From positions 18,113-82,112 of the forward strand of contig JANYJG010000061.1 of assembly GCA_025358515.1 (NCBI GenBank): 64,000 nt of DNA, read 5' to 3'. The position numbers were made by a program, and so were the translations under genes. The notes beneath the pieces are model-generated. The model was not told the origin of the DNA, made no database searches, and saw only the letters and a list, made by a program, of their open reading frames with translations. Within the stretch, counting starts at the first letter, position 1, and the number at the start of each line of letters is the position of its first letter. Of this stretch, positions 16,703 through 33,885 are shown piece after piece. This DNA comes from Chloroflexota bacterium (GTDB lineage Bacteria; Chloroflexota; Limnocylindria; Limnocylindrales; CSP1-4).

Positions 16703-16706
16703 ACCG

Positions 16707-17360: not shown

Positions 17361-18625
17361 CCGAGAACATCAGCAGCGACGCCGCCAACGCGGGCCACGC
17401 CGGCGTGGCTTCGGCGCCGGTCAGCGGCACCGTCCGCACCCCCGCCCGGGGCAAGAAGATCCGCGTCGCCATCGTCGGCGTGGGCAACTGCGCCAGCAGC
17501 CTGGTTCAGGGCCGCTACTACTACGAGAACGCGGCCGAGGATGACTTCATTCCGGGCCTGATGCACGTCAATCTGGGCGGCTACCACGTTCGGGACATCG
17601 AGTTCGTGGCCGCCTTCGACATCGACAAGAACAAGGTCGGCAAGGACCTTTCCGAAGCGATCTACACCAAGCCGAACAACACGATTGTCTTCCACAAGGT
17701 ACAGAACCTCGGCGTCAAGGTCGAGCGCGGCATGACCCACGACGGTCTTGGCAAGTACCTCTCTCAGATCATCGAGAAGGCCCCCGGACCCACGGCCGAT
17801 GTCGTCGGTATCCTCAAGGAGCGCAAGGTCGACGTCGTCGTGTCGTACCTCCCGGTCGGCTCCGAGGAAGCGACCAAGTGGTACGTGGAGCAGGCTCTGC
17901 AGGCCGGCGTCGCCTTCGTCAACTGCATCCCGGTCTTCATCGGTCGCGAGCCGTACTGGCAGCGCCGCTTCGCCGAGAAGGGCCTGCCGATCATCGGTGA
18001 CGACATCAAGAGCCAGGTCGGCGCGACCATCACCCATCGCGTCATGACCCGCCTGTTCATGGATCGCGGCGTCCGTCTGGACCGAACCTACCAGCTCAAC
18101 TTCGGCGGCAACACCGACTTCCTCAACATGCTCGAGCGCGAGCGCCTGGAGTCCAAGAAGATCTCCAAGACGAACGCGGTCACTTCGATGCTCGACTACG
18201 ACATCGACCCGGACAATATCCACGTCGGCCCGAGCGACCACGTGCCGTGGCTGCTCGACCGCAAGTACTGCTACATCGTCATGGAGGGCACGACGTTCGG
18301 CGACGTGCCGCTCAAGTGCGAGCTCAAGCTCGAAGTCTGGGACAGCCCGAACAGTGCCGGCGTCGTCATCGACGCGATCCGCTGCCTGCGGCTGGGCCTC
18401 GATCGGGGCCTCAAGGGAACCCTCGTGGCCCCGTCCAGCTACTTCATGAAGAGTCCGCCGATGCAGATCCACGACGATATCGCCTTCAACCGCCTCGAGG
18501 CCTTCATCCGCGGCGAGGACAACGAGACCCTCGTCGGCACGGAGACTATCGCCAAGAAGGTCAAGAAGGCGGCCCCGCGTAGCGGCGGGAAAGTGGTGGC
18601 TCCTGCATCGGCCGAGGGCCGGTGA
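17357..18625 (+). CDS. ino1: myo-Inositol-1-phosphate synthase
   Basis: 422 aa. [18 protein letters not shown] Rossmann start and the overall actinobacterial/archaeal-type MIPS pattern. GTGA overlap with the upstream gene. Confidence 0.93.
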
Positions 18626-19776
18626 CAGGGGGAGACCCCACCGCGGCAAAGACGGTAGTCGAGTCCGAGACGGACGAGGCGGCGCCCACCCGGCGCCGCC
18701 CGTCCGCCCAACACGAAACCGGCGCTGCCACGGGTGAGGGCAAATCGGGCTCCAAGGCGCTGGAGGCTCCCCATCGCCGTCAGCAGGAGACGCTTTCGAC
18801 ACGCATCGCGGGTGAGGTACTCGCGAGGGTTTGGCGAACCGGTTCCTGGGTCATGGGCCACGTCCCGCCTGGGCCGGCCTATCGAATAGGTAGCGCGCTG
18901 GTGATGATCGGCTATGCCGCCAGTCCGACGCAACGTCGCTGGCTTCGGACTAACTTCGGCCACGTTCTGGGCGTATCGCCCAACGACGCCGCCGCGGGAA
19001 GAATGGCCCGCGAGGCCTACCGCAATTACGCCCGCTACATAATGGAATTGATGCGCCTGCCGTGGCTGAGCCGCGAGCAGACCGACAAGCTCTTGGAGGT
19101 CCAGAGCCTCGACCGGTTCCTCGAAACAGCACGCACGAGCGACGGCATGATCATGGCCGCCGCGCATCTTGGCAACAACGAGGCCGGCGGCGCGGGATTC
19201 GTCAAGCAAGGGCTCCAAATCAGCGTGGTCGGCGACGACACGGCATACCAGGCTTTGTACGACCTCTTCGCCCGCCAGCGTGGCAGCTGGGGCCTGAAGA
19301 TGATCTCCTGGCGGAACCTGAGAGGCGTTTACAGCGCGCTCCGAAAGAAAGACGCGTTGGTTCTTCTTGTCGACTGGGGCTACCGCCCGGACGGAATCCC
19401 GGTGAAGATGTTCGGCGCGTGGACGACGCTCCCTGCCGGACCCGCGATTCTGGCCGCCAGGTTCGGCTGCCCGATCGTGCCATTCATGATCAACCGGCTC
19501 GCCGACGGGACCTTCCAGGCCAAGACCCACGACCCGATCTTGGTGCCCTCCAATGCTCCGGCCGAACTGGCGAAAGCCACTCAGGCGATGGCCACGGCGC
19601 TGGAGGAGTACATCGCGCAGGCGCCGGGGCAGTGGTACATCTTCAAGCCGATCTGGCCCGCTACCGAGCAGGAGCAGCAGCAGCTCGCCGCCCGCCATGA
19701 GGCGATGCTGGCCGAGACGTTGAGCAAGACCGGCGATGGCGCAACTGGCGCCCGAGCGGATCGCCGGAGTCGATGA
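18622..19776 (+). CDS. Lysophospholipid/lipid A-type (HtrB/LpxL family) acyltransferase, PatA-like, copy 1
   Basis: After a low-complexity N-terminus of about 60 aa comes an HtrB-like domain ([12 protein letters not shown] ... [39 protein letters not shown]). The start is coupled to the ino1 stop. Confidence 0.75.
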
Positions 19777-20795
19777 CCTCGACGATTGGGGTCGAGCACT
19801 CCGGGCTGCGTCGGCGTCTGTCCGACTGGTTGGTCGCCACGATTGTGATCGCCGTCCTCAAGCTCATCTGCCACCTACCGGAAGCGCCCTTATGGCGCAT
19901 CGCCGACCTCGCCGGAGGGGTTGCCTATCGGATTTCTCGGACTCGGCGCAACCGCGCCCGCCGCAACCTCCGCCGCGTTGTGGAGTGGATGGCGGCCAAT
20001 GCCGTCGGCGAGGAACGCTATCGCCACGCCGCCACGGATCCGCGCGCGCTGGAGAACCTGGTCTGCTCGGCGTTCCGCAACCACGCCCGCTACTACGTCG
20101 AAATGGCCCGGGCACCGCTCTTCACGTCCGCGTGGGTGGCGGACCGACTCGTCATCGAAACGCCGGAAGCGGTGGACCTGTGGCTGACGGATCGCCGAGC
20201 GCTGATCCTTCTGGGGATGCATTTCGGGCCGATCGAGATGCCGGGGTTCTACGCCGTGCACCGCCTCGGCCAGATCGTGGCTCCGATGGAGACCGTCGCC
20301 AACGCTCGGATCCAGCGCTACGTCGAATCCACCCGCGGCACCATCGGCGTGCGCATCGTCACTGTGGAGGAGGCAGGCAAGGAGCTCCTGGCGACGCTTC
20401 GCAAAGACTGCCCGGTCGGATTGATCGCAGATAGGGACCTGACCGGCGGCGGGCTGGAGGTGCAATTGTTCGGCGCCAGCACGAGGATCCCCGCCGGGCC
20501 GGTGCTGCTGGCTGTGGAGACCGGCGCCCCGATCTACGTTTCCGGCGTGCGCCGTACCGGCCCGGGCCGTTATCTTGGCAATGTCCGTCAGGTGACGGTG
20601 CCGGAGGGCATGAGCCGGCGAGAACGTAGTCGGGCGATGGTTCGCGACGAGGCCCGAATTTTTGAGTTGATAATCGCGGACGCGCCCGAACAATGGCTGG
20701 CCGTTTTCCATCCAATCTGGTCGGACCTCGAGACGACCGCCCGGACGGGAAAGCTCGGCGTTGCCGCTGGTGGCCGAACCGGAGAAGCTGCGTGA
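19773..20795 (+). CDS. HtrB/LpxL-family acyltransferase, PatA-like, copy 2
   Basis: ILLGMHFGPIEMPG ... LIADRDLTGGGLEVQLFGASTRIPAGPVLLAVETGAPIYV. ATGA overlap with copy 1. Confidence 0.8.
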   Translation: MTSTIGVEHSGLRRRLSDWLVATIVIAVLKLICHLPEAPLWRIADLAGGVAYRISRTRRNRARRNLRRVVEWMAANAVGEERYRHAATDPRALENLVCSAFRNHARYYVEMARAPLFTSAWVADRLVIETPEAVDLWLTDRRALILLGMHFGPIEMPGFYAVHRLGQIVAPMETVANARIQRYVESTRGTIGVRIVTVEEAGKELLATLRKDCPVGLIADRDLTGGGLEVQLFGASTRIPAGPVLLAVETGAPIYVSGVRRTGPGRYLGNVRQVTVPEGMSRRERSRAMVRDEARIFELIIADAPEQWLAVFHPIWSDLETTARTGKLGVAAGGRTGEAA

Positions 20796-20797
20796 CC

Positions 20798-21679
20798 ATG
20801 GGCGACGAGCCAGGGCTCGGCAAGGCAGACATGCATATACATTCGATGGCCTCGGATGGAACGGCATCTGCAGCCGAGATTCTCGACTACGTCGAGCGAA
20901 GCACGGATCTGGACGTGATCGCAATTGCGGATCACGAACGGATCGAAGCCGCGGTGGAGTGCCGACGCTTGGCACTGGAGCGCGGCAGCCGGATCCAGGT
21001 GGTGGTGGCAGAGGAAGTCACGACGCGCAGCGGCCACCTCCTCGGAGTGTTCCTACAGGCTCGCCTTCGGCGGAACCAGCGCCTCGAGATCACGGTCGCC
21101 GAAATCCACGAGCAAGGCGGCCTGGCGATCGTGCCGCACCCGTTCTCGGCCTTCACCCGGGGCATGCGCAAACACGCCATCCTGCGCATCCACGAGTCCT
21201 CTGATCCGCTCCTCTACTGGGACGCGCTGGAGGGATTCAACCCGTCAACTGCCGGCAGGTACGGCCGGGCCGCCACCGCCAGGCTGGCCGCGGTACTGGG
21301 CTTGCCGCTGGTGGGGAACAGCGACGGCCACACCCTGGATACGATCGGCGATGGCCGAACCTTCTTCCCGGGCTCCACGGCAGACGACTACCGACGAGCC
21401 ATCCGGGAGGGGACGACGACCGGCAGTTGCGTGGACTGGGGTTTCCCGCGCGAGGCTATGATCTACGGCCGCCAGGTCCGCAAGCAAGTCCGCGACGTGT
21501 CGCGCTGGGGCCGCCGGACGGTTTTGCGAGATGGCACGCCGCGGGACCTGGGTGTGCCGATGGACCAGCTGGAGCTTCAGCATCAGATCGAGGCCGAGTA
21601 CCTGGCGAGGGACCGAAGCCAGGCCCAGCCGATGATCGCCGCGGGCGATCGACGTGAAGCTGAGGAGCCGCCCGCGTGA
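20798..21679 (+). CDS. PHP-domain metal-dependent phosphoesterase
   Basis: ATG 20798. ADMHIHSMASDG, IAIADHERIE and AIVPHPFS are the His/Asp-rich motifs of the PHP (polymerase/histidinol phosphatase) fold. Confidence 0.85.
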   Translation: MGDEPGLGKADMHIHSMASDGTASAAEILDYVERSTDLDVIAIADHERIEAAVECRRLALERGSRIQVVVAEEVTTRSGHLLGVFLQARLRRNQRLEITVAEIHEQGGLAIVPHPFSAFTRGMRKHAILRIHESSDPLLYWDALEGFNPSTAGRYGRAATARLAAVLGLPLVGNSDGHTLDTIGDGRTFFPGSTADDYRRAIREGTTTGSCVDWGFPREAMIYGRQVRKQVRDVSRWGRRTVLRDGTPRDLGVPMDQLELQHQIEAEYLARDRSQAQPMIAAGDRREAEEPPA

Positions 21680-22851
21680 AGATCGGGCTCGTGACGCCGT
21701 ACGTCTACCCGGTCCCCGGCGGGGTCAACGAGCACGTCCGCTTCCTGTACGAAAACCTGCGCATGCACGGCCACGACGTGCGCATCATCACCAGCAGCCA
21801 CGGGCTGCAGCGGGCCTCCGAGGGCGACGTAATCCGGATCGGCAAGGGCTTCAGCGTGCCCAGCAACGGCTCGGTGGGCACGATCACGATTTCGCCACGC
21901 TATGTCTCGCAGGTCAATGCGGTGCTCGCACAGGAGCAGTTCGACCTGCTGCATTTCCACGAGCCCTTCGTTCCGTTTCTGTCCCTAATCACCCTCCGCC
22001 AGTCGACCAGCGTGAACATCGCCACTTTCCACGCCTACGCCGGCTTCTCACCGGCGATGGAACTCGGCAGCAAGACGCTCCAGGGCTACGCTCGCAAGCT
22101 GCACGGTCGCATCGCCGTCAGCGCCGCGGCACGCCATTTCGTGGACCGCTTCTTCCCGGGCGATTACAAGATCATCCCCAACGGCGTGAACCTTGGCCGC
22201 TTCCAGCGTGCTGTGCCGTTGGCCCGGTGGCAGGACGGGACGCCCAACCTGCTCTTCGTCGGCCGGCTCGAGGACCGCAAGGGCCTGATCCATCTCCTCA
22301 AGGCTTTTCGGCTGATCCGAAAGGCCGACACCGACTGCCGCCTTCTCGTCGTGGGCTCCGGTCCGCAGGAACGCGAGATGCGTCGCTACGTGCTGACTCG
22401 CGGCCTCGGGAATGTTGAGTTCCTTGGCCGCGTCAGCGATGCGGAAAAAGCCCAGCTATTCCGAACCGCGGACGTTTTCGTCTCGCCTGCGACACGAGGA
22501 GAGTCGTTCGGAATCGTGCTGCTGGAGGCAATGGCGGCCGGCACCCCGATAGTCTGCAGCGACATTCACGGCTACAAGGGCGTTGTCCAGCGGGGCAGCC
22601 AAGCTTTGCTCGTCCCCCCGCGCGACCCCAAGGCTTTGGCGGCGGCGATTTCCGAACTCCTGGCCGATCCGGCGTTGCGCACCACAATGGGCGCCAGCGG
22701 CCAGGCGCGGGCCGAGCAGTTCAGCTGGGAGCACGTCACGGCCAGGGTCGAGGCGTACTACTCGTTCGTGATCCGCCGGCTGGCGGCACAGGGCCAGTTG
22801 CCGCCGGGTTTCCACGCCGATCCGAATCCGGCGACGCGCCCAGTCGATTAG
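21676..22851 (+). CDS. pimA: GT4 glycosyltransferase, phosphatidylinositol alpha-mannosyltransferase (PimA)-like
   Basis: MKIGLVTPYVYPVPGGVNEHVRFLYENLRMHGHDVRIITSS resembles my recollection of the PimA N-terminus. E-x7-E region: ESFGIVLLEAMAAGTPIV. GTGA overlap with the PHP gene. Confidence 0.8.
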   Translation: MKIGLVTPYVYPVPGGVNEHVRFLYENLRMHGHDVRIITSSHGLQRASEGDVIRIGKGFSVPSNGSVGTITISPRYVSQVNAVLAQEQFDLLHFHEPFVPFLSLITLRQSTSVNIATFHAYAGFSPAMELGSKTLQGYARKLHGRIAVSAAARHFVDRFFPGDYKIIPNGVNLGRFQRAVPLARWQDGTPNLLFVGRLEDRKGLIHLLKAFRLIRKADTDCRLLVVGSGPQEREMRRYVLTRGLGNVEFLGRVSDAEKAQLFRTADVFVSPATRGESFGIVLLEAMAAGTPIVCSDIHGYKGVVQRGSQALLVPPRDPKALAAAISELLADPALRTTMGASGQARAEQFSWEHVTARVEAYYSFVIRRLAAQGQLPPGFHADPNPATRPVD

Positions 22852-22894
22852 AGAACGGCAGACGTTCGGCCGGCGGCAACGGATTGTCGGCCTT

Positions 22895-22938
22895 CGGCTC
22901 ACGTTCGGCCGGCGTTCGGCTCACGTTCGGCCGGCGTT
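22895..22938. repeat. 22-bp tandem duplication CGGCTCACGTTCGGCCGGCGTT x2 in a convergent intergenic spacer
   Basis: Seen directly. A related ACGTTCGGCCGGCGGCAACGG lies at 22862. Confidence 0.8.
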
Positions 22939-22948
22939 GGCGGGGCGT

Positions 22949-25900
22949 CTAGGAGATGGGCGCGGAACCGGAATCGCTCGGCCCCGCCGAATCGTTCGGC
23001 TCCGTTGGATCGGCCGGCGGCAACGGATCGGCGGGCGGCAACGGATCGGCGGGCGGCAACGGACCGGCCGGCGGCAACGGACCGGCGTGCGGCTCGTCGA
23101 TGGCCCCGGGCGGCTCGTCGATGAGCCCGGGCGGCTCGTCCTCAAGTGCTCCGTCGGCCAGGCCGTGGCGGCGGAGGCCCATAAGGACCCGCCGCTCCCA
23201 GGCCGCCCAGCCCACGATCGCGGCAAGAATCAGGGCCACGGTCGCGAGAGCCACACTGTTCGCATCGATCAGCTTTACGGACGCCGATGGCTGCAGGTTC
23301 ACCGAGAACTGGAAGCCGTAGAACCAGGTCGGCAGGAAGCCCTGGTAGATGCCCATGATCTTGTTAGGCATCGGCAGAGCGGACAGGTCCGGATAGAGAG
23401 CCAGGAAGACCACGACGGCCATAACGCACAGACCCCACACGAACCGACGCGGGTTGCGCGAGGCGAGGACGATCGGCGCCGCCACCAGCCCGACCGCGAG
23501 CATCAGGAGTGCGATCAGGTCTGGCGGAAGTGCTGCGTGGAAGACCTCGAAGCTCGGGCCATACTGGCCAATCAACCATAGCAACGCACCGGCGATCAGG
23601 ACCGGCACTATAAGTTGCAGGATCCAGCCGTTGCCTTCTTCGCCCTCCTCCTGGCGCCGCTCGGCCCTGAACAGCACGATAGCCAGCACGGCCAGGGCCA
23701 CGAGCAGGACGACCACAATCAAGATGTGCCGCGCCTCCAGGTGAACGTCGCCCGTGCCGGCGCCGCACGCGCTGGCGCCATAGGTGTCGAGCGCGTTGAC
23801 GCGGGCCAAGCTGCACAGCGGCGCCTTGAACAGCCACAGCGCGGCCGGGAACAGGAACGCCGCAGCTGCACTGAATCTGGCCAGCAGCCATGTCTTCCTC
23901 GATGGTCCGTGCCAGATTTCCGCCATGAAGTACGCCAGGGCCAATAAGAAGAAGGGCAAGGCTGTGTAGAAGTGGTATTGGAATGCGGCCCGGTCAATGC
24001 GCGACCACGACAGCCATTGCCAGAAGAAGGCCATGGCTACGAGTGTTAAGCCCAGGCTGCGACGCTTGAAGGCCTGCCAACAGATGAACGCGATGGCGAA
24101 TATGGCCATCCACCACAGGGCCGGGTTGCCGCCGTCGTGGATCCATGAACCGTTGTCCGGTCCGTATCCGATGCTCTCGAACCAGACGGGCTTGAGGTCC
24201 AGCGGCCAGGCCCACCACGGCGACGACGCCGCGTGCGCCGCCCGCAGGTCGTTGTGGTACGTGTACATCTGTTGGGTCAGGTCCCACAGCGTATTGCCGG
24301 TGTGGCCTGCCGGAAACGCCTGATCGCAATAATTCTTGGAGGAGTCGGTCGGGTTTTCGTAGTCGTGGTGGTAGTGGAGGCACCAGATCACCGGCAGCGG
24401 GCCGGTTCCAACGGTCTGGCCGCTCGCCGTCTGCGTTAGCGGGATCTCCTTTTGCCAGGGCATTGCCCACGGCAGGTACATGACGATGTAGACGATGAAC
24501 GGCAGGACGAGCAAGCTGCCGACCATCCACACTGCCGGCAGTCCGAAACCCGAACCCAGCCGCAGCCAGCCCTTTGGCGGCGGCGCGGGCGGCTCGGCGA
24601 ACGAGGCCGGGTCGTCGGGCGCCGGCGGCTGGGCCAGCGGCCCAAAGCCCATCCTGCCCGCAACGGTGAACCCGACCGCTGCCAGAATTCCCACACCAAC
24701 GCCGCCGAGGCCGAGCTGGAGAAGAGAGCTGCTGCCGCGCGCGGCCCCGAGGATCAGGGCGCCACCACCCAGCAGCAGGGGCGCGAAGATCGCGAAGAAG
24801 AACTCCTCGCGCGTCCAGGCGATGGGGTGGTAGGCGTTGGCCGCGGCGGCGATGGCGGTGATGGTCAGCATGATCAGGAAGAACGTGTAGTTGGGCGCCC
24901 CGTTCTGGATCGTTCCGGCCGTGAACAGCAGCGATGCTCCGCCCAAGCCAGCCGCCATCGCGAGGGCGACTCCCACGACCAGGACCTTGTCCGGCGTGGC
25001 ACGGAAGCGTCCCGACAGCCAAACGCCGCCAACCGCAACGACGGCAGCCGCCGCCAGCAGCAACATCACCGTATTGGTGTTGCCCGTATTTGGGACGGTG
25101 TTCATCTCACCGATCGCCATCCAACCCAGCAATCCCGTGCCGGCGGCCATTCCCAGGATGGTGATGAGACGGCCCAGGGCCGATCGGATAAGGATCAGGA
25201 TGCCGATGCTGGCCATTGCGTAGGCGGCAACCCACTTGGAAGCAAGGGCCACACCCAGGATCAGCCCGATCGTGGGCATGGCCAGCCAGAACGCGAATCG
25301 ATGCTTCCAGACGCCGAGCCACAGCAGCGCAAACAGCAGGTATGCCAGTAACAAGAAGCCGCCGACGTACGTGTCGTTCATGGCAATTCGCGATTGAACG
25401 AAGAACATGCCATCGACCAGCGAGAAGAAGGCCACCAGGAGCGCGACCGAGCGGCGCCGAAACAGCACCCGGGCCAGCAGGAACAGGCAAGCCGCCATCA
25501 GCGCGCCGAACAAGACTCCGACGATGCGCCAGGAGAAGGCAAAGTGGCCGACGTCCACGGAAGCCATCGAGCCATCGGCCGCGAACGCCAGCATCTGCTC
25601 GCGATCGGTGTCCGGCATGGGTGCGGTCGAGTCGAGGCCAATCGCCACCGGCGCAAACGGCAGCCGGGCGTCCTGGAAAACGGCGTTGCCGTTCATCTCG
25701 ATTGAGTACAGCGTCCAGCCCTTGCCGTCCGGAGTCCGGCCCAGCGCCTGGGCGATGCGAGTCGCGTCGTCGATAACGACCTTGGTTACCGCACCCGGCA
25801 TCTTGCGCAGCGGCTGGAAAGAGTCAGGGCTGACGGTTCCGAGGGTGCTGTCGGCCTTTATCAGGACCATCGAGTCGCCGGCGGCAACGTAGGACTGCTG

Positions 25901-28900
25901 ACTGGTGTCGGTGTTGATCGCAATCGAAGTCGCCGGCTGGGACGTCTTCATGGTGGAGCCGAGGACGATGTTACGGGCATCCAGTACGCCGACGCCGTCG
26001 GCGTACGCCACCAGGACCCTTGGGCTGCCGGCCTCTACCGCGAAACCTTTCAGCTGACCGCTCGCGATCGCGGCTGTGACCTTGGAAATCTGGTCCGCAG
26101 TAATGGAGCCCAGCGGTACTGCCTCCTGGGAGGAAGAGACCGCCATCGAATCGAGGGCGGCCTGCACCACCGTCGGATCCATCCCGAGAGCAGTCGCCAG
26201 AGCCTTCGCTTCGGCCGAGATTCCGGAGGCGGTTGGCGTCGGGCTCGGGGTCGTGGAGGGGCCGGGGGTCGATGGCAAACGCGCGATCGACGCCGACCCC
26301 GCTCCGAAATCGACGAAGTCGGCCGCGCCGGGGACAACGCCGCTGCCGACCACCGCGCCGCCGTTTTGGTTCAGGTCTACCGAGACGATCTTCCCGGCGG
26401 AATCGGTCGCCAGGAGCAAGGGCGGCGTTCCGGCATACAGGTGCGCGATCGTAATCCCGGTCTTGGCGGGCAGTTCAGCCGGAGCAGTTGGCGTAGCCGT
26501 GGCGCCAAGGCGCACGCTATCGAGGTCGCCGGTAGCGATCCGGAAGATCCGGCCGCTCGACGTCCCGACATAAATTGCGCCGGTGCTCGGGACCAGACTG
26601 AGGGCTGACGCGCCCGCAACCTTGTAGGTATAGACGGGCGCTCGGGTCTGCAAGTCGTAGGCGATTACCTCGCCGCCGCCAGCGTCCGTGGCGACGTACA
26701 CACGGTCACCCAGTCGAGCATCCGGGTTTGAGCGTGGGTCGTTCGTATCGGGTGGAACCGTAAGGTCTGTGGCGGCGTAGCGTGGCTGGACCAGGGCGTC
26801 CTTCACGCTGACGCCAAGAGTGTTGGTGGACGTGACCTTGTCGTTGGAGAAGAGAGCGATGCCGCCCGCAATCGCGTACTTCGCGACGTGCGGGTGCGTC
26901 CACTCGAAGAAGTCATGGGGGATGCCGTACTGCCATTCCTGCAGGAATTCGGTGGCCGTGCGGGCGTGGTAGACCTCGTCGAAGTGCATCTTGACCGGCT
27001 CGTCGAGGCGGTAGACACGCAGCGACAGGGTGGCGATCACGACAACGACGAGGATCCAAACGTCCAGCCGGTCGAAACGGCCCCGACCCTCGTGATCGAG
27101 GGCGTGCGACCTGTCCGCCTGATTCGGTCGCCGATACAGCCACCGCCAGAGCCGCATCACGAAGTGAGGGACCAGTTCCGGGCGGGGTCCGTGGAACCCG
27201 TCCCGCGGCTCTTCCTCGTCGGACTCAAAGGCGTAGTCGCCGCCCGGCCCGTAGCCTGGGCCCTCGTCGTTAGCGGCGGAGGCCACAACGGCGTCGGCCG
27301 GGACGGCGGCGCCGGCGCGCGAGGCGCCGACGGAAGTCTCATACGCGAGGTGCCGTTCGACATTCGATACGGCACGCGGTTCGGGCTCGCGTCCGGCGGC
27401 GAGCACTTCACGGGCCAGGCCGTCCGTCGCGCGGCTCCGCATCTGTAGAAGCGCCCAGATCATGACCAGCCCGGTCGTTATGCCGCACACCGCCACGACT
27501 AGGATGGTCCCGGTTGGCCACTCGGTCTGGTTCAGCCAATGGCCCCAGTCGATGAGGATCTGGGCGATCGGGCCGTCCTGAGCTGGAATCCCCGTGTTCT
27601 TAAGCGGGTCGCTGTATTGGACAATGACGGCCAGCAGGTTCGCGGCGTTGGCGATCGCCAGAACCACGTACACCACCGACCAGCGCCACGAAACGGCGAG
27701 CAGCACCGCCCCGATGCCAAAGAAGGGGAAGAGGTAGCGCTCGTGGACGCGGGTCGGGACTACGAAGAACGCGATCGCCAGAATCGCCAGAGCCACCAGC
27801 AGCGAACGGGAGTCGTCGCGCCAGGCCGCCCAGAGGCCGACCCCAAGAATGGTTGCCACCAGCAGTCCGTCGCCGAAGACGGCCGCCGGAATCCCGCCCC
27901 CGATCTGGCTGACGAGCACGAGCCCGATTAGGCCGGCCAGGACGATGCAGATGGCCGTCAGGCTGCCGAACTCTTGTCGCACTACGACCTGGAACCAGCC
28001 CGACCGACCGCGCGCGGTGGCGCCGTCGTCGGAGCCGGCGGCACCCTCGTCGGCACCGGTGGAAGGTCGGCTCCTCATCCGCACCCGGATGGCGATGACT
28101 ATTAGCACAACAACCAGCAGGGCCAGTGCGGCCAGGGTCTGCGCAGAAAACGGGCCGACATGGAATCCAGGCATGCTCTGGCCGGCTTGGTTCACCCAGG
28201 GAGAGTCCTGGATCCAGCTGTGGCCGCGATCCATCGCCTCGCCGGTATCGTTGACAACGAGGGCCCACGGGTTGTAGGCGTTGAGCGTTAGGTACGGGTA
28301 GCCGCCGAACGACGAGACCACGTGGCCGACGATCGAGTCGAAGACCATCGCCGAGAAGCCCACAACCGTCGTCGCGGCCAGACCGATCGAAATCGCGAGC
28401 TCGTTCCGAACCCCCAGGGCCGTCAGCTTCAGGCGAGCCAGAACGAAGACGCCGACCGCTGCCACGACGCCCACCGCAAAGGTCAGGGCACCCGGAACCG
28501 TGGCGAGTCGGTTTGCGATACCGGGCAGGTCGAGGCCCGTGAATGGCAGGCAGACGAGGGCTGCGGTCGCCAGGCCCGCGCCGATCGAGCTGATGACCCG
28601 GACCGGCTCCGCTCCCCCGGTGCGCGGGAACAAAGATCGCCGCAGGATCACGAACCCGACGATGAAACCGATGATGCCGAGCTGCAGCTTGGTCAACGTC
28701 GCCAGGACCGCCAGGGCTGACGCGGCCTCTCGCTTATCTCGCTGCAGTTCCAAGAGGCTCAGCAATAAGAAGATCGACCCGACCGAATCGGCCTGGCCCC
28801 AGATCGCACTGTTGAACCACGTGACGGGGTTGACCAGGACCACAACCAGGGCGATGAGGGCACGGCGCCGGGACGCACCCAGCTGGAGGACCATCTGCCA

Positions 28901-29317
28901 CACGACGTAGGCGAGCACCAGATCCGCGAAGATCGGAATGATCTTGACGCCCTCGCCTATGGATCCGCCGGTGAATACTGCGACCACGCCGAGCAGGAGC
29001 AGATAGACCGGGGGATAGTCGATAAACGACTGGCGACCATAGAAGCCGATGGGCCCGTGAACGGCTATGTCGTTGCCCCACGCCTGGAATGAGGACAGGT
29101 CGTTGGGGAATCCGGACCCCGGTAGGAGCACGTATGCGATGATGAAGCGGAGGGCAAGCCCCAGGGCGAGGAAGATGACGATGGCGGGAACAGTGACGGC
29201 ACCGTTCGTTTCCGCTGACGCGCGTCCCCGCGAGCTGCCCTCTCGCGTGCTCGGGCCTACCAACCGATCCGGCCTCCTGGACGAGCGCTGAGGTGGACCG
29301 GAGTATAACCCAGGCAC
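22949..29317 (-). CDS. Giant (2122 aa) polytopic protein: N-terminal GT-C module, then a PMT/GT39-type module with an inserted beta-propeller-like domain, then a Pro-rich tail
   Basis: Residues about 40-640 are many-TM with SFIDYPPVYLLLLG (a GT-C DYPP-type loop). From about residue 760: LDVWILVVVVIATLSLRVYRLDEPVKMHFDEVYHARTATEF ... THPHVAKYAIAG (PMT loop-1 DE motif). About 430 aa of repeated beta-strand units follow (IYVGTSSGRIFRIA, LLLATDSAGKIVSVD, VLVAYADGVGVLD, SYVAAGDSMVLIKAD). PMT core TMs (SLVDGMFFVQSRIAMNDTY) and a PMT-C-like end (FQYHFYTALPFFLLALAYF) come next. The tail reads GPLPPAGPLPPADPLPPADPLPPADP. The GTG start is uncertain (TTG 29263 is an alternative). Confidence 0.85.
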   Translation of the reverse strand: MPGLYSGPPQRSSRRPDRLVGPSTREGSSRGRASAETNGAVTVPAIVIFLALGLALRFIIAYVLLPGSGFPNDLSSFQAWGNDIAVHGPIGFYGRQSFIDYPPVYLLLLGVVAVFTGGSIGEGVKIIPIFADLVLAYVVWQMVLQLGASRRRALIALVVVLVNPVTWFNSAIWGQADSVGSIFLLLSLLELQRDKREAASALAVLATLTKLQLGIIGFIVGFVILRRSLFPRTGGAEPVRVISSIGAGLATAALVCLPFTGLDLPGIANRLATVPGALTFAVGVVAAVGVFVLARLKLTALGVRNELAISIGLAATTVVGFSAMVFDSIVGHVVSSFGGYPYLTLNAYNPWALVVNDTGEAMDRGHSWIQDSPWVNQAGQSMPGFHVGPFSAQTLAALALLVVVLIVIAIRVRMRSRPSTGADEGAAGSDDGATARGRSGWFQVVVRQEFGSLTAICIVLAGLIGLVLVSQIGGGIPAAVFGDGLLVATILGVGLWAAWRDDSRSLLVALAILAIAFFVVPTRVHERYLFPFFGIGAVLLAVSWRWSVVYVVLAIANAANLLAVIVQYSDPLKNTGIPAQDGPIAQILIDWGHWLNQTEWPTGTILVVAVCGITTGLVMIWALLQMRSRATDGLAREVLAAGREPEPRAVSNVERHLAYETSVGASRAGAAVPADAVVASAANDEGPGYGPGGDYAFESDEEEPRDGFHGPRPELVPHFVMRLWRWLYRRPNQADRSHALDHEGRGRFDRLDVWILVVVVIATLSLRVYRLDEPVKMHFDEVYHARTATEFLQEWQYGIPHDFFEWTHPHVAKYAIAGGIALFSNDKVTSTNTLGVSVKDALVQPRYAATDLTVPPDTNDPRSNPDARLGDRVYVATDAGGGEVIAYDLQTRAPVYTYKVAGASALSLVPSTGAIYVGTSSGRIFRIATGDLDSVRLGATATPTAPAELPAKTGITIAHLYAGTPPLLLATDSAGKIVSVDLNQNGGAVVGSGVVPGAADFVDFGAGSASIARLPSTPGPSTTPSPTPTASGISAEAKALATALGMDPTVVQAALDSMAVSSSQEAVPLGSITADQISKVTAAIASGQLKGFAVEAGSPRVLVAYADGVGVLDARNIVLGSTMKTSQPATSIAINTDTSQQSYVAAGDSMVLIKADSTLGTVSPDSFQPLRKMPGAVTKVVIDDATRIAQALGRTPDGKGWTLYSIEMNGNAVFQDARLPFAPVAIGLDSTAPMPDTDREQMLAFAADGSMASVDVGHFAFSWRIVGVLFGALMAACLFLLARVLFRRRSVALLVAFFSLVDGMFFVQSRIAMNDTYVGGFLLLAYLLFALLWLGVWKHRFAFWLAMPTIGLILGVALASKWVAAYAMASIGILILIRSALGRLITILGMAAGTGLLGWMAIGEMNTVPNTGNTNTVMLLLAAAAVVAVGGVWLSGRFRATPDKVLVVGVALAMAAGLGGASLLFTAGTIQNGAPNYTFFLIMLTITAIAAAANAYHPIAWTREEFFFAIFAPLLLGGGALILGAARGSSSLLQLGLGGVGVGILAAVGFTVAGRMGFGPLAQPPAPDDPASFAEPPAPPPKGWLRLGSGFGLPAVWMVGSLLVLPFIVYIVMYLPWAMPWQKEIPLTQTASGQTVGTGPLPVIWCLHYHHDYENPTDSSKNYCDQAFPAGHTGNTLWDLTQQMYTYHNDLRAAHAASSPWWAWPLDLKPVWFESIGYGPDNGSWIHDGGNPALWWMAIFAIAFICWQAFKRRSLGLTLVAMAFFWQWLSWSRIDRAAFQYHFYTALPFFLLALAYFMAEIWHGPSRKTWLLARFSAAAAFLFPAALWLFKAPLCSLARVNALDTYGASACGAGTGDVHLEARHILIVVVLLVALAVLAIVLFRAERRQEEGEEGNGWILQLIVPVLIAGALLWLIGQYGPSFEVFHAALPPDLIALLMLAVGLVAAPIVLASRNPRRFVWGLCVMAVVVFLALYPDLSALPMPNKIMGIYQGFLPTWFYGFQFSVNLQPSASVKLIDANSVALATVALILAAIVGWAAWERRVLMGLRRHGLADGALEDEPPGLIDEPPGAIDEPHAGPLPPAGPLPPADPLPPADPLPPADPTEPNDSAGPSDSGSAPIS
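23011..23082. repeat. 18-bp tandem repeat x4 (CGGCSGGCGGCAACGGAY) encoding the PLPPA(G/D) hexapeptide repeats
   Basis: Seen directly inside the 3' end of the giant gene. It is followed by two GGGCGGCTCGTCGAT-type units. Confidence 0.85.
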
Positions 29318-31125
29318 AGGTCGGGGACGGCATCCCGGACCGCACAGCGACAGATGGGAAGAACGGGCTAGCTCCTACGGTCAAGGGTCGGCCGTTCCTT
29401 TGGGGCCTCCTCCTGGTTGCGTTGTGCCTTAGCGTTTTCGTGGGCAGCCAGCCGAATCGCTCGAACCCCTACGTCCACTTCGTGTTCCAGGCGCAGGCTT
29501 GGATGGACGGCCAGACGTCGATCCCGACTCACGTCAAGTGGAGCAGCACCTCTCCGGGGGACGACTACCAGGACATCATGCCGATCCTGGATTCGAACGG
29601 CACCGACACCAACCGCGGCATCATCCCCTTTCCGCCGCTGCCGACCTGGGTCTTGTTGCCCTTCGTGGCGATCTGGCGCCTATCGACCAACCAACAACTC
29701 CTCGCCACCATCTTTGGCGCTATCGATGTTGGCATCGCCTTCTGGATGCTCGGCTTCCTGCCCGTGCGGCCGGCCATCAGGTGGTTCGCGGCGCTGTTCC
29801 TAGGGCTGGGCTCCGTCCTGTGGTACGCCTCCGCAATTGGATCGACGTGGTTCTGGGCCCACATCGTGGCCGTGGGGTGCCTGCTTTTGGCCGTGGGTTT
29901 AGCCCTGTCCGTTGACCGCGAGGCAGCGCAACCGCGTCCCGTTTCGGAGGCCGTGCCGACTCTCAAGAGACTCGAATGGCCGGGTGGCTGGCGATCGTTC
30001 CTCCTGCTTGCGGCGCTTGGCGCTCTGGCGGGGGCCCTTATCCAGCTCGCGGGCGCCGGTGTCTCGGCCGCCAGCCTGACCGGACTGGGCATCGCGATGG
30101 GCCTGGTAGCCGCGGCTCTGGCGGGGGCCGTTGCCGGCCGGGCGTCGGCCGTGGCCCCGATCGTGGTGACGGTCGCGGTGGCAGCCGGTTTGCCGATGCT
30201 CCTGATTTTGGGGGCTCACTCGACCATGTTTGTGACCATCGCAGACATCGTTTTGCTATTGATGATCCTGAGCATGATCCTCCTTGGCGGTCGCAAGAAC
30301 GGGGCGGTGGATCGCGGCTTCAACGCCCTGGCCGTCGCCCTGACCCGGCCGGAGGCGATACAGGTCGCTGCCGGGCTCATGTTCGGCTTGGCGGTCACCG
30401 CTCGACTGACCATCCTGTTCGGGTTTCCGTTCTTCCTGCTTGTTGGCGGCGGCGGGACGTGGCTGCGGCGCGGGCTCCTGGCAGGCGCCGGCGCAGCCGT
30501 TCCCCTGATCGCCCTGCTCGTCTTCACGTATGCGAGCACGGGCCACGTCTTCAATCCCGCCTACGAATATCTCTATCGCCTCGAGGTCAACTATCCGCTG
30601 GGTTACAACCCGGATTGGTCGATCGCGGACATCCGCTACGTCCCGCAGAACCTGGTGATCATGTTCGGTGAACTGCCGAGGTTCATGCCCAACTTCCCCG
30701 CGATATTCCCGGTCGACAGTGGAACCGGGCTTTGCAGCGCAATCGGCAGCTCTCGAGGCCTGTTCGACGCCACCTGCCCCATCGCCTTGCCCGACGCACG
30801 AGGCCTGAGCATTCTCCTGACGAGCCCGGCATTCGTATTTGCCGCGCTGGCATGGCTGCCGGCCCGCCTCAAGCAGCTCGACCGGGCCACCGTCGGGGCG
30901 ACACTGGCCGTTTGCGCAATCGCCTTCGTGAACCTCATGCATTTCAGCCAGGGCTGGGTCCAATTTGGGTATCGCTTCAGCAACGACTTCGTGCCCTTCG
31001 CCCTGATCCTGGTTGCCCTCGGCGCCAGCCGAATCCGGCAGTTGTGGCCATTCGTGGCCCTGGTACTGCTGTCTGTGCTTGTCAACTTATGGGGCGTCAT
31101 CTGGGGAGTAACGCTTGGCTGGTAG
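29293..31125 (+). CDS. Polytopic GT-C-type membrane glycosyltransferase (family unassigned)
   Basis: 610 aa, at least 12 predicted TMs. First extracytoplasmic loop: DDYQDIMPILDSNGTDTNRGIIPFPPLPTWVLLPF. It is divergent from the giant gene, and the two annotated GTG starts overlap by 25 bp, so at least one start is uncertain. Confidence 0.6.
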   Translation: MDRSITQAQVGDGIPDRTATDGKNGLAPTVKGRPFLWGLLLVALCLSVFVGSQPNRSNPYVHFVFQAQAWMDGQTSIPTHVKWSSTSPGDDYQDIMPILDSNGTDTNRGIIPFPPLPTWVLLPFVAIWRLSTNQQLLATIFGAIDVGIAFWMLGFLPVRPAIRWFAALFLGLGSVLWYASAIGSTWFWAHIVAVGCLLLAVGLALSVDREAAQPRPVSEAVPTLKRLEWPGGWRSFLLLAALGALAGALIQLAGAGVSAASLTGLGIAMGLVAAALAGAVAGRASAVAPIVVTVAVAAGLPMLLILGAHSTMFVTIADIVLLLMILSMILLGGRKNGAVDRGFNALAVALTRPEAIQVAAGLMFGLAVTARLTILFGFPFFLLVGGGGTWLRRGLLAGAGAAVPLIALLVFTYASTGHVFNPAYEYLYRLEVNYPLGYNPDWSIADIRYVPQNLVIMFGELPRFMPNFPAIFPVDSGTGLCSAIGSSRGLFDATCPIALPDARGLSILLTSPAFVFAALAWLPARLKQLDRATVGATLAVCAIAFVNLMHFSQGWVQFGYRFSNDFVPFALILVALGASRIRQLWPFVALVLLSVLVNLWGVIWGVTLGW

Positions 31126-33058
31126 TCCGATCGAGAACCCCACGACCGCGGCGCCCGAAATCGGGACCGCGCCCGGGCCGGCCGGCCACCTCAGGGCTCC
31201 TCTGGAGCGGGGCCGAGCGGTCCTCGGCCGCCTGGCCGGGTCGGGCCTGTTCATGGCCGCTCTCGCCCCGCTGATCGCCGCCGGCGTGACCCTCTGGCTC
31301 GTTATCCCAACGCTGGCGCCGGGCGTGGCTAACTGGGATACGGCCGAATTCCAGACCGTGGCCCCCGTGCTCGGGACGGCCCACCCAACCGGCTACCCGG
31401 CCTACGTCATCATCGGCTGGCTCGCATCCCTGCTTCTGACTCCGTTCGGGGAGGCGGCCTATCGCATGAACATCCTGCAGGCCCTTTTCGCCGCAGGTGC
31501 GATCGCGGCCACAGTTGCGATCGTCCAGCTGCTCACCAAGATGCGGTGGGTGGCCCTGGCCACGGGTCTGCTGCTGGCTTGGACCCAGTTGTTCTGGCGA
31601 CTCTCAACTCACGCCGACCCACACATGTTGCACGCGGCGCTGGTCGGGGTGGTGTTCGTGCTGCTGCTGGCCTGGGAACGGCGGCGCGTCGGAGACGTGG
31701 AGACGCCCCTCGATACCACGAAGCCTCTTCGCTGGCTGCTGGCCGGGGCATTCCTATACGCGGTAGCGGTCGCGGACCACCGTCTGCCGCTCATCGTCCC
31801 GGAGGCGACCGGGCTGCTCTTGATGGCCATGCTGTTCATCCTGCTGCTCGTTCGGGAGGCCGCGCTGCGGCGTAACACGGCGCCGTCCGGCCGGGCCGAT
31901 CGTTGGCTCGTGGCAGCCGCGTTTGTCTACGCCGTGGCCGTGGCCAATCACTCCTTGGCGCTTCTGCTGCCGCCGGCCATCGGGCTGTTCGTGCTGGCGG
32001 TGGACCCGCGGATTCTGCTGCGCCGAAGGACCATAGTCGCCTGCGTCACCGTGCTGGCTGTCACCATCATTGCCTTGTTCCTGGAGCTGCCGATTCGAGC
32101 GGCGATGCACGCCCCGTTGGTTTACGGCCACCCAGACACGTGGTCTGGTTTTGCTTACGTCGTCCTGGGCCAGCAGTTCCTGGGGAACCTGTCCGACCCT
32201 CTCGGGAACCTACCGGGCAAGGCGGCCGGCGTGGTTAACCTGATGTCCGGGTGGCTGGGTCCGTTCGGCTATTTGTCGATGCTCGGCGTCGCCACGAGCC
32301 TGGTCCGCCGACCGCGCTTCGTCCTGTTGAGCGGGCTGGCGGCGCTGGTAGTCCTCTTCTTCGCGGCCTCTTACGCGGATGGCGCAATCGACCGCTACTA
32401 CATGGTGCCATTGCTAATTGCCTTCGTCTGGATGGGCCTCGGCGCGGCCGATCTCGTAGTCGGCTACGGTTGGCTCGCCGACCAGGTCCGCCGCCGCTCC
32501 GGCGAATTTGCATTGAGGCGCGCAGGCGCACTGGACTCCTCGCCCTCCGAAGGCCCGGACGACGGCTGGGACCGTCACGCCCGCCTGGCGGCGGAGTTGA
32601 TCTTCACCTTGGCGCTGGTCGCGCCGTCCATCGGTATCGTTTCGGAGCGGCAGCAGGCGTCGCGCGGATCTCATTCCGAGGGCGTCAGCGAATCGACACG
32701 GACCGGCGACGAGCGTTGGATGCGGGCCGTACTGGCCATGCCGGAGGCCGGCGGCCTGCCCCAGGATGCGGTCGTGGTCAGTTGGTGGAGTACCTCCACA
32801 ACCCTGTGGTACGGCCAGAAGGCCGACGGCCTCCGCCCGGACATCTACATAGTGGATGACCGGACTCGCCTCGATGACAACCTCGGAACGGTTCAGAACA
32901 CAATCGACAAGTTCCTCGGCAACAGACCGGTCTTCACCATTAGACTCGACGGCGGCGGCGATGGCATGACTGCACTGAGGTCCCGGTACGTTGTCCAGCC
33001 GTTCAAACTGCCGAACGGATCCACCATCGCCCAGGTCATGGCACGGAAAGGATCTTAG
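31115..33058 (+). CDS. DUF2723 (TMEM260-like) GT-C membrane protein, putative O-mannosyltransferase
   Basis: PGVANWDTAEFQTVAPVLGTAHPTGYPAYVIIGW matches the DUF2723 signature (D/E-x-x-E-F ... G-x-x-HPxGYP) as I remember it. Many TMs, plus a C-terminal soluble domain of about 150 aa. The TTG start is uncertain. Confidence 0.7.
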   Translation: MAGSPIENPTTAAPEIGTAPGPAGHLRAPLERGRAVLGRLAGSGLFMAALAPLIAAGVTLWLVIPTLAPGVANWDTAEFQTVAPVLGTAHPTGYPAYVIIGWLASLLLTPFGEAAYRMNILQALFAAGAIAATVAIVQLLTKMRWVALATGLLLAWTQLFWRLSTHADPHMLHAALVGVVFVLLLAWERRRVGDVETPLDTTKPLRWLLAGAFLYAVAVADHRLPLIVPEATGLLLMAMLFILLLVREAALRRNTAPSGRADRWLVAAAFVYAVAVANHSLALLLPPAIGLFVLAVDPRILLRRRTIVACVTVLAVTIIALFLELPIRAAMHAPLVYGHPDTWSGFAYVVLGQQFLGNLSDPLGNLPGKAAGVVNLMSGWLGPFGYLSMLGVATSLVRRPRFVLLSGLAALVVLFFAASYADGAIDRYYMVPLLIAFVWMGLGAADLVVGYGWLADQVRRRSGEFALRRAGALDSSPSEGPDDGWDRHARLAAELIFTLALVAPSIGIVSERQQASRGSHSEGVSESTRTGDERWMRAVLAMPEAGGLPQDAVVVSWWSTSTTLWYGQKADGLRPDIYIVDDRTRLDDNLGTVQNTIDKFLGNRPVFTIRLDGGGDGMTALRSRYVVQPFKLPNGSTIAQVMARKGS

Positions 33059-33885
33059 TGAGCGCTGTCAAAGGTTCGAGCATGGCGGGTTCCACAACGT
33101 CCGGCGGGGGATCAGGGGGCATGGCCGCGGGATCGCAGCGCGTCGCCGAACTGTCGTTTTTCTTCCCGGCGCACAACGAGGAGGCCAATCTCGAGGCCCT
33201 CGTCGAGGAGGCCCTGACGGCGCTGCCGGCGCTGGCCGAGAAGTTCGAAATAATCGCCGTCAACGATGGCTCTCGTGACCACACCGCGGCCATCGCGGAC
33301 GAACTCGCCGGCAAGCATCCGGGCGTGTTCCGTGTTGTCCACCACCCGACCAATCTGGGCTACGGCGCTGCGCTCCGTTCCGGCTTCCGAGCCTCGCGCT
33401 ACGGCCTGATCGCCTTCATCGACGGAGACCGCCAATTCAAGGTTGCCGACGTGGGTCGTCTGACCGAGCGGTTGGCCGGCTCGGACAAGCCAGACGTCGT
33501 GGTCGGTTTCCGGCTCAAGCGAGCCGATCCGCTAATCCGGCGCTGGTACGCGCGCATTTATCGGTTCGCGAATCGGGTCTTCTTCGGCGTTCTCGTCCGC
33601 GACATCGACTGCGCCTGCAAACTCTTCCGCCGCGACGCCCTGACGCCGATCCGCGTCGCCTCGGGCGGTGCTTTCTTCACGGCCGAATTGCTGATCAAGC
33701 TGCGTCACAACAACCGCATGATCGCGGAGGTGGGAGTCCCCCACTACCCACGCACCGCCGGTTCCCCCACCGGGGCCAAGCCGAGCGTGGTCTTCCGAGC
33801 GGTCCGCGACTTCTGGTCTCTGCGACTGCGGCTGTGGTTCCGTCGCAAGGGCGGAATGCAGCGCGGCGAGGCGATGCTGGGCTAG
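33058..33885 (+). CDS. GT2 polyprenyl-phosphate glycosyltransferase (Ppm1/DPM1/ArnC-like)
   Basis: FFFPAHNEEANLEALVEEAL ... IIAVNDGSRDHT ... HHPTNLGYGAALRSGF ... FIDGDRQF. The TAGTG start is coupled to the upstream GT-C gene. Confidence 0.85.
   Translation: MSAVKGSSMAGSTTSGGGSGGMAAGSQRVAELSFFFPAHNEEANLEALVEEALTALPALAEKFEIIAVNDGSRDHTAAIADELAGKHPGVFRVVHHPTNLGYGAALRSGFRASRYGLIAFIDGDRQFKVADVGRLTERLAGSDKPDVVVGFRLKRADPLIRRWYARIYRFANRVFFGVLVRDIDCACKLFRRDALTPIRVASGGAFFTAELLIKLRHNNRMIAEVGVPHYPRTAGSPTGAKPSVVFRAVRDFWSLRLRLWFRRKGGMQRGEAMLG

Follow-up and report, generated by a model that had tools for sequence, protein, structure and literature searches.

A 2,122-residue protein of Limnocylindria with two GT-C modules and a predicted β-propeller in outer loop 1

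Why would a bacterium keep two different glycosyltransferases in a single polypeptide and hold a soluble domain inside a catalytic loop of one of them? The question is raised by an open reading frame (ORF) of 6.4 kb in a 64,000-nucleotide stretch of DNA from a Chloroflexota bacterium (class Limnocylindria, order Limnocylindrales; assembly GCA_025358515.1, contig JANYJG010000061.1, positions 18,113 to 82,112), hereafter the window. GT-C enzymes build N-glycans, glycosylphosphatidylinositol (GPI) anchors, O-mannosyl glycans, and the mycobacterial envelope, and, to our knowledge, they are otherwise always single catalytic modules, sometimes associated as noncovalent dimers. Limnocylindria is an abundant, uncultured class of soil and freshwater bacteria. 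An original prediction, made from the letters of the window, had described the ORF as single and uninterrupted and had divided it into an N-terminal polytopic module (hereafter N-module), a module of the protein O-mannosyltransferase (PMT)/GT39 type, an insert rich in β-strands, and a Pro-rich tail; our analysis recovered all four parts in the places assigned to them (Table 1). Comparison of homologous sequences indicates that the gene is real and that its two-module architecture is kept throughout the class. Our preferred, tentative reading (probability about 0.45) is that the encoded giant protein is a bifunctional, outward-facing mannosyltransferase, in which the PMT-like module with its propeller would act on proteins and the N-module on a phosphatidylinositol (PI)-based glycolipid, both using one shared lipid-linked donor.

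The ORF and its homologs

The same architecture recurs in databases. A search of 5.8 billion proteins returned 494 matches to the giant protein at E ≤ 1e-3, of which approximately 78 were full-length homologs (2,000–2,200 amino acids, 51–65% identity), and a second tier comprised proteins of 1,700–1,800 amino acids with approximately 40% identity. The named matches came from metagenome-assembled genomes (MAGs) of Candidatus Limnocylindrales or Chloroflexota. In an alignment of 121 homologs, occupancy was 0.9–1.0 across the N-module, the PMT-like module, and the insert, and drops to about 0.5–0.6 were confined to the N-terminal leader, the linker between the modules (residues 641–720), and the tail. 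Scanning a single genome for each GTDB species gave 79 loci, 75 of which contain the Asp-Glu (DE) motif of the PMT-like module. Nearly all the 79 loci were from Chloroflexota/Limnocylindria MAGs, and the labels of the two assigned to Methylomirabilota or Patescibacteria are probably due to mis-binning.

The original prediction had asked whether the junction between the modules (approximately 27200–27500, residues ~606–706) could be an artifact. The N-module (HMM score >300) and the DE motif were found in one stop-free frame at 64 of the 75 species-level loci, which are independent MAGs from many studies and include both short- and long-read assemblies. Because these loci read through the linker in one frame, an assembly or frameshift artifact is excluded for the family. 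Two observations could speak for two genes joined by such an error, namely the poor conservation of the linker (occupancy 0.56–0.62, identity 0.15–0.18) and four loci in which the N-module lies in another frame just upstream, but the 64 single-frame loci and the full-length database proteins refute this explanation for the family and leave it only a negligible probability.

In these four loci (L030, L057, L066, and L071), the frame of the N-module lies directly upstream of the PMT frame and overlaps it. Three of them are long-read MAGs and L066 is a short-read assembly; the change could be due to indel errors, genuine gene fission, or programmed frameshifting. One candidate for a standalone N-module, P0150, was rejected; it is a fragment at a syntenic locus, on a contig with genes broken and mis-joined throughout. 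Its breakage is probably long-read indel noise, so it lends no support to a split gene.

The GTG start as listed overlaps a divergent ORF beginning at 29293. A perfect AGGAGG, a strong Shine-Dalgarno sequence, is present at 29263–29268, 9 nt ahead of a TTG at 29254 (residue 19), and sequence conservation starts only near residue 41 in the alignment of 121 homologs. The TTG is the more plausible of the two and may be the true start, in which case the protein would be approximately 18 residues shorter.

The PMT-like module and its propeller insert

The assignment of the second module to the PMT/GT39 type, with the acidic motif HFDEVYHA (residues 778–785) and a C-terminal region of four transmembrane (TM) helices, held in family searches, as both Pfam models passed their gathering cut-offs. 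PMT (PF02366) matched residues 1260–1378 with 32.5 bits (cut-off 22.7), and PMT_4TMC (PF16192) was marginal on the whole protein (32.5 bits, cut-off 32.4), reached 34.3–34.7 bits on sub-sequences, and was recorded in nearly all homologs. D780 and E781 were invariant in 63 aligned sequences, and the family profile matched Pmt4 in the PDB (E = 8.6e-4). The combination of PMT, PMT_4TMC, and the DE motif is a feature of protein O-mannosyltransferases. By our own count, the module contains six TM helices beyond the canonical PMT, and five more follow it. No MIR domain was matched in any Pfam scan of the giant protein, which is compatible with the bacterial branch of the family because bacterial PMTs, as far as we know, lack MIR too.

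The original prediction had placed an insert of about 430 residues right after THPHVAKYAIAG (residues 807–818). The insert, 428 residues in length, directly follows the HPHVAKYAIAG helix and separates the second loop helix (KYAIAGGIALF) from TM2. When residues 827–1255 were removed in silico, one contiguous PMT match (HMM positions 4–199) was restored with 39.4 instead of 32.5 bits, and PMT_2 also exceeded its threshold. The contiguity of the match after excision indicates that the 428 residues have truly been inserted into outer loop 1. At the 63 loci where both motifs were located, the spacing between DE and DGMFF was 449–686 residues (median 501), suggesting that the insert is universal in the family.

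The suspicion that the insert is propeller-like was borne out by structure prediction. In an AlphaFold2 (AF2) model of residues 735–1862, the insert formed a confident block (pLDDT mostly 80–92) with 30 β-strands, and a Foldseek search with this model gave 904 PDB matches at E ≤ 1e-3. The list was headed by seven-bladed WD40 propellers, including G-beta, TLE1 (TMt 0.68), beta'-COP (TMt 0.72), and the designed protein Cake8; TMt for G-beta, TLE1, and beta'-COP ranged from 0.6 to 0.72. At the sequence level, the family profile matched blades of the designed "Cake" propellers (E = 3e-5), and the profile of the insert gave a weak match to 3ott, a glycan-sensing propeller from a hybrid two-component sensor (E = 0.076). 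A Pfam scan of the insert detected no WD40 match and no carbohydrate-binding-module signature, and its sole match was PQQ_2 at E = 0.064, which leaves the insert without a WD40 or PQQ signature. The model identifies the insert as a seven-bladed WD40-like β-propeller, for which approximately 28 strands in four-stranded blades are expected. The top 50 Foldseek matches of the PMT-plus-insert model were all propellers, and no match to the PMT fold could be read among them; the C-terminal part of this model was of low confidence, with pLDDT <50 for much of model residues 886–1128.

A smaller insertion within the propeller is a hotspot of variation. In one homolog (P0025), residues 1049–1095 form a LysM domain that lies inside the propeller insert, probably at the place of the three-helix sub-insert of the giant protein. 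In another homolog (P0053), the insert region shows, as judged by eye, an apparent tandem duplication of the three-helix segment.

The N-terminal module

The N-terminal polytopic region contains the segment SFIDYPPVY (residues 97–105), from which the original prediction had proposed an enzyme like ALG6/8 or PIG-V/Gpi18. The GT-C fold of this proposal stood, so that the protein holds two different GT-C modules, whereas a recognizable membership in those families did not. An AF2 model built from a 15-sequence alignment (pLDDT 76, pTM 0.81) had as its top Foldseek match GPI mannosyltransferase I (9wno_A, TMt 0.65, probability 1.0). AglB and ALG6 (6snh_X) were also matched with probability 1.0 and ALG3 with 0.99, followed by PimE (9dm7_A, 0.72) and Emb proteins (0.54–0.85); PIG-U (8imx_U, 7wld_U), a noncatalytic subunit with the GT-C fold, was among the matches as well. 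The module is thus polytopic and superimposes on solved GT-C enzymes. By contrast, the N-module of the window reached no Pfam family at threshold: GT87 (PF09594) scored 17.4 bits against a cut-off of 25, DUF2079 was also below threshold, and ALG6/ALG8 (PF03155, gathering cut-off 25 bits) was not matched. Its own profile detected no PDB sequence at E ≤ 10, nor did the whole-protein profile in that region.

Homologs and relatives gave weak family signals. Among 15 homologous N-modules scanned at E ≤ 1, ALG6_ALG8 was matched in 8 (best E = 1.2e-7) and GT87 in 6 (best E = 6.4e-6); a single homolog, P0081, reached 26.6 bits for GT87, and one standalone relative reached 31 bits for ALG6_ALG8. An exhaustive profile search with the N-module returned 6,626 cluster representatives at E ≤ 1e-3. 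These included standalone relatives of 450–550 amino acids from Chloroflexota and a few other phyla, which are unnamed or labeled "Gpi18-like mannosyltransferase" by JGI and show scattered ALG6_8, PIG-U, GT87, and PMT_2 matches.

Residues resembling those of a GT-C active site are kept. In the homolog alignment, D100 in FIDY(P/T)P never varies, D73 reaches at least 90% conservation, and both acidic residues fall on outer loop 1 in our hand-built topology. Also invariant are D132, D177 (in NPxTWFxSxxWGQxDS), the YPYLTxNAYNPW segment, and H525-E526-R527-Y528; this HERY motif is comparable to the HEK motif of ALG6/8. Judged from the model and these residues, the N-module is a GT-C-fold protein of an uncharacterized family, weakly similar to ALG6/8, GT87, and PIG-U.

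Topology

A model with 38 TM helices and the N-terminus inside puts the linker and the tail in the cytoplasm as well, and both catalytic loops, the conserved polar motifs of the N-module, the propeller, and the Cys-containing loops outside. The density of Lys plus Arg in the loop flanks of this model was 0.209 inside and 0.061 outside, so the model fits the positive-inside rule. No hydrophobic or TM span was found between residues 766 and 1263; this and the LysM domain in the insert of P0025 are two independent hints that the insert is outside, and we predict that the propeller is extracytoplasmic.

Copies without the N-terminal module

At 4 of the 75 loci with the DE motif (L011, L014, L016, and L021), the PMT-propeller unit occurs without the N-module. 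These paralogs are 54–60% identical to the giant protein over residues ~675–2050, are found as a second copy in some genomes, and have, in place of the N-module, a short leader with about four TM helices. Two of the paralog loci, L014 and L021, were examined for neighbors. There the paralogs adjoin large genes that encode repeat-domain proteins (Kelch, RCC1, CarboxypepD_reg, and CAP), likely secreted or surface proteins as judged from these domain types, and neither paralog has phosphatidylinositol mannoside (PIM) genes beside it; the L021 paralog also adjoins an ECF sigma factor gene. The existence of these copies indicates that the PMT-propeller unit is self-sufficient; the N-module is an addition whose presence correlates with the PIM-linked locus.

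Genomic context

The conserved flanking operon of the PIM type is the most informative context of the giant gene. Its GT4 protein matched M. smegmatis PimA over the full length (E = 5e-64; next family 1e-25). Of its two acyltransferases, both with a PIM acyltransferase as best NCBIfam match, the first had PatA as its only PDB match (E = 1e-18). The CDP-alcohol phosphatidyltransferase was best matched by phosphatidylinositol-phosphate (PIP) synthase or archaetidylinositol-phosphate synthase, the inositol-3-phosphate synthase (Ino1) match scored 525 bits, and the PHP-family phosphatase is a candidate PIP phosphatase. By these matches, 16620–22851 holds a complete operon of the PIM-initiation type in a Chloroflexota genome. 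PIM- and lipomannan-type inositol glycolipids are usually held to be a hallmark of Actinobacteria, and we found no literature linking PIM or PimA to Chloroflexi/Chloroflexota, within an incomplete literature coverage. In Corynebacterineae, an operon of pgsA, an acyltransferase gene, and pimA starts PIM synthesis, and after the cytoplasmic GT-B steps the extension takes place outside the membrane by polyprenyl-phosphate-mannose-dependent GT-C enzymes such as PimE (PMC3229680).

At the other end of the giant gene, the GT2 protein of the divergent operon matched PpgS, ArnC, PgfS, and dolichyl-phosphate hexose transferase in NCBIfam; its single top match was a partial one to the processive synthase PgaC/IcaA (1.5e-16). 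The gene for a TMEM260-like GT-C protein lies directly upstream, and as the two ORFs abut or overlap by 1 nt, translational coupling is possible. The sole characterized member of the TMEM260 family is a human protein O-mannosyltransferase. The 610-amino-acid protein of this operon had no Pfam, NCBIfam, or PDB match, and the idea that it is a relative of the N-module was rejected (hhalign probability 0.5%). A syntenic counterpart of 466–616 amino acids was present in all homologous loci examined; the protein may be a flippase or another GT-C enzyme.

The gene arrangement around the giant gene is kept at homologs of 52% and approximately 40–44% identity; at the 52% homolog locus (L001), no Ino1 gene was called. 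The island adjoins a minus-strand stretch (34465–39556) with dnaN, recF, and a conserved gene for a 760-amino-acid protein, which had no family match and a weakly PP2C-like N-terminus. Because the order of these three genes is kept in distant homologous loci, the window is probably near the replication origin.

Table 1 Features of the giant gene and its neighbors in the window. Predicted features rest on the analyses named.
Feature	Coordinates	Strand	Remarks
Whole giant ORF	22949..29317	-	2,122 codons and stop; GTG start as listed; no interruption
N-terminal GT-C module, residues 41–650	27368..29197	-	~16 TM helices; AF2 model, Foldseek, Pfam on homologs
N-module outer loop 1, residues 65–120	28958..29125	-	Conserved D73 and D100; hand-built topology
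HERY motif, residues 525–528	27734..27745	-	Invariant; outer face by hand-built topology
Inter-module linker, residues 651–734	27116..27367	-	Charged, rich in Lys and Arg, poorly conserved; predicted cytoplasmic
PMT-like module part 1, residues 735–827	26837..27115	-	TM1 and two outer-loop-1 helices; HFDEVYHA, THPHVAKYAIAG
D780-E781, PMT loop-1 acidic motif	26975..26980	-	Invariant
Propeller insert, residues 828–1255	25553..26836	-	~428 residues; outer loop 1 of PMT-like module; predicted extracytoplasmic
Sub-insert within propeller, residues 1014–1091	26045..26278	-	Pro/Ser/Thr-rich stretch, then three helices (1030–1085)
PMT-like module remainder, residues 1256–1862	23732..25552	-	TM2 onward; large outer loop with Cys pair; PMT_4TMC
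PMT_4TMC match, residues 1676–1822	23852..24292	-	32.5 bits (cut-off 32.4)
C-terminal extension, residues 1863–2040	23198..23731	-	Five TM helices; conserved; no family match
Acidic, Pro-rich tail, residues 2041–2122	22952..23197	-	Occupancy <0.5; predicted cytoplasmic
18-bp tandem repeat, 4.8 copies	23007..23093		GPLPPA(G/D); Tandem Repeats Finder, 92% matches, score 132
21-bp tandem repeat, 2.5 copies	23089..23140		EPPG(L/A)ID; Tandem Repeats Finder
PimA homolog (GT4)	21676..22851	+	Convergent with giant gene; Pfam, PimA match
Remaining PIM-type operon	16620..21679	+	PIP-synthase-like, Ino1, two PatA-like acyltransferases, PHP phosphatase
Divergent operon at giant gene 5' end	29293..33885	+	610-amino-acid protein, TMEM260-like GT-C, GT2
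610-amino-acid polytopic protein	29293..31125	+	Between giant gene and TMEM260-like GT-C
TMEM260-like GT-C, 647 amino acids	31115..33058	+	Pfam
GT2, 275 amino acids	33058..33885	+	Polyprenyl-phosphate-sugar synthase type; NCBIfam

Proposed function and alternatives

What the sequences show is how the protein is built and conserved, its catalytic motifs, the folds predicted for it, and a conserved gene neighborhood; its topology, the identity of the sugar and of the two acceptors, and the purpose of the fusion are inferred. The giant protein would be one polytopic protein with approximately 38 TM helices and two catalytically competent GT-C enzymes that depend on a polyprenyl-phosphate sugar, with both active-site loops and the propeller facing the outside of the cytoplasmic membrane. 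The adjoining GT2 protein would load polyprenyl phosphate with a hexose, most likely mannose, and the product would be flipped outward. By means of its Asp-Glu loop, the PMT-like module would move the sugar onto Ser/Thr residues of extracytoplasmic (envelope) proteins; we propose a protein acceptor from the PMT, PMT_4TMC, and DE signature and from the context of the paralogs. The propeller in loop 1 may serve as a platform that binds the acceptor or a partner, a role like that of the MIR domain in eukaryotic PMTs and of the TPR arrays in TMTC and TMEM260 proteins. The N-module, in turn, would extend a PI-based mannolipid begun in the cytoplasm by the PimA/PatA/PIP-synthase operon. A glycolipid acceptor is suggested by the conserved linkage to this operon and by the recognizable relatives of the N-module (ALG6/8, GT87/PimE, and PIG-M), which work on lipid-linked glycans rather than on glycoproteins. 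The fusion would then co-localize two consumers of one donor at a fixed stoichiometry.

Several points weigh against this reading. The PMT-like module is distant from characterized enzymes: the NCBIfam Pmt equivalog model (NF058602) was not reached (19.3 bits, cut-off 800), PMT_4TMC lies at its threshold, and a phmmer search of the insert-spliced module against the PDB gave nothing at E ≤ 1, so a non-protein acceptor is possible, and propellers are able to bind glycans besides proteins. The N-module of the window is below all Pfam thresholds and has no sequence-level match in the PDB, and the noncatalytic PIG-U is among its weak matches. It was modeled separately from residues 735–1862, and the topology was built by hand from hydropathy and the helices predicted by AF2. 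In addition, every homolog genome is a MAG, and the synteny beside dnaN-recF within one class may partly reflect shared ancestry rather than function.

The alternatives differ in what each module is taken to do. In line with the sequential assembly suggested by the original prediction, the PMT-propeller unit might put the first sugar on a protein Ser/Thr and the N-module at once extend the O-glycan, so that initiation and elongation are coupled. Such a sequence would suit the catalytic motifs retained in both modules, their predicted facing to the same side, the retention of the fusion at 64 of 75 loci, the one polyprenyl-phosphate-sugar synthase gene nearby, and the TMEM260-like protein as a second GT-C of the protein-O-mannosyltransferase type in the island. 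We nonetheless consider it unlikely, since it leaves the conserved PimA/PatA/PIP-synthase linkage unexplained and sits poorly with the lipid-linked substrates of the N-module relatives and with PMT-propeller units that occur alone; these last two observations make parallel reactions at least as likely as sequential ones. The linkage to PimA, PatA, Ino1, and PIP-synthase homologs, tight and conserved, would suit another reading, equally unlikely in our view, in which a lipomannan-like, PI-anchored lipoglycan is the product of both modules. The N-module would in that case prime a flipped acyl-PIM (compare PimE and MptB), and the PMT-like module would polymerize or branch the mannan while the propeller holds the chain as the carbohydrate-binding domains of Emb proteins and AftD do. 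The high divergence of the PMT-like module from proven protein mannosyltransferases and the weak match of the insert profile to the propeller of 3ott agree with such a role, but the PMT/PMT_4TMC pair with its DE motif is typical of protein O-mannosyltransferases, PMT-propeller paralogs reside away from PIM genes and beside putative secreted-protein genes, and the insert shows no carbohydrate-binding-module signature.

The N-module may, on the other hand, be a noncatalytic GT-C fold that binds a lipid or glycolipid and positions or regulates the PMT-propeller unit, as PIG-U does in the GPI transamidase or one partner in a PMT dimer. Standalone relatives with PIG-U matches in Pfam, the two PIG-U structures in the Foldseek list, and scores of the window sequence under every glycosyltransferase family threshold are what this idea has in its favor. 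It is improbable, however, because D100, D177, and HERY are invariant and D73 nearly so on predicted outer loops of sequences only 42–47% identical, which is the pattern expected of an active site, and because the best fold matches are active transferases.

Relation to known GT-C enzymes

The giant protein shares PMT, PMT_4TMC, and the loop-1 Asp-Glu with PMT/GT39 enzymes such as Pmt1-Pmt2 (PDB 6P25), Pmt4, and M. tuberculosis Rv1002c, whose polyprenyl-phosphate sugar is the likely donor here too. Cysteines in EL4 matter in the M. tuberculosis PMT (PMC12331936), and the large outer loop of the giant protein also has a Cys pair. Unlike these enzymes, the giant protein has no MIR domain but a propeller, which is in loop 1 and not in the TM7–8 loop; it also has extra TM helices and a second GT-C module at the N-terminus, and its acceptor is one that we infer. 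PMTs are described as acting as dimers (PMC7759382). The Pmt1-Pmt2 heterodimer is an obligate noncovalent pair of paralogs, whereas the giant protein is a covalent pair from two different GT-C families.

The N-module has the same overall fold as GPI mannosyltransferase I (PIG-M/Gpi14, 9WNO), PimE (GT87, 9DM7), and ALG6 (6SNH), and like them it has acidic residues in outer loop 1, but it has approximately 16 TM helices compared with 10–14 and is covalently joined to a PMT-like enzyme. For PimE, the link to PimA and PatA is functional (PMC3229680), whereas for the N-module it is genomic. EmbA/B/C and AftD (with carbohydrate-binding modules), TMTC1-4, and TMEM260 (TPR) likewise combine a GT-C core with an outward soluble domain presumed to bind the acceptor. 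In the giant protein, however, this domain is a WD40-like propeller inside a catalytic loop rather than at the C-terminus, and there are two cores per chain.

We found no literature on two GT-C catalytic modules in one polypeptide or on a propeller in loop 1, within the same incomplete coverage, and nothing relevant on glycosyltransferases of Limnocylindria. Catalytic loop 1 would be a new position, and the propeller a new fold, for a putative acceptor-binding domain. A tandem of two GT-C families kept class-wide offers a natural experiment on enzyme cooperation, and the giant protein is a single-chain target for structural work. The PimA/PatA/Ino1/PIP-synthase operon suggests that inositol mannolipid chemistry reaches Chloroflexota, which would revise the view of their envelopes. 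A further, somewhat doubtful proposal is that Limnocylindria make PIM/lipomannan-type glycolipids by a single-chain "assembly line" of two GT-C catalysts and a propeller that clamps the acceptor. If true, a single outer-leaflet site would host both priming and extension, or the mannosylation of both glycolipids and glycoproteins, and the giant protein would be the first GT-C enzyme in covalent tandem.

The C-terminal tail and its repeats

The PLPPA(D/G) tail encoded by an 18-bp repeat, as described in the original prediction, is real, but, with its low occupancy in the alignment, it is lineage-specific low complexity and no conserved part of the machinery. The tail is probably cytoplasmic. A near-copy of the coding 18-bp unit, CCGTTGCCGCCGGCCG, is found beyond the stop codon at approximately 22867–22884, and a 22-bp direct repeat of 2.3 copies occupies 22888–22938, both in the intergenic region just beyond the stop (22860–22940). 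The extension of the repeat tract past the stop codon suggests that the tail length and the stop position drift by slippage. The tail of the paralog at L014 bears its own, different tandem repeat.

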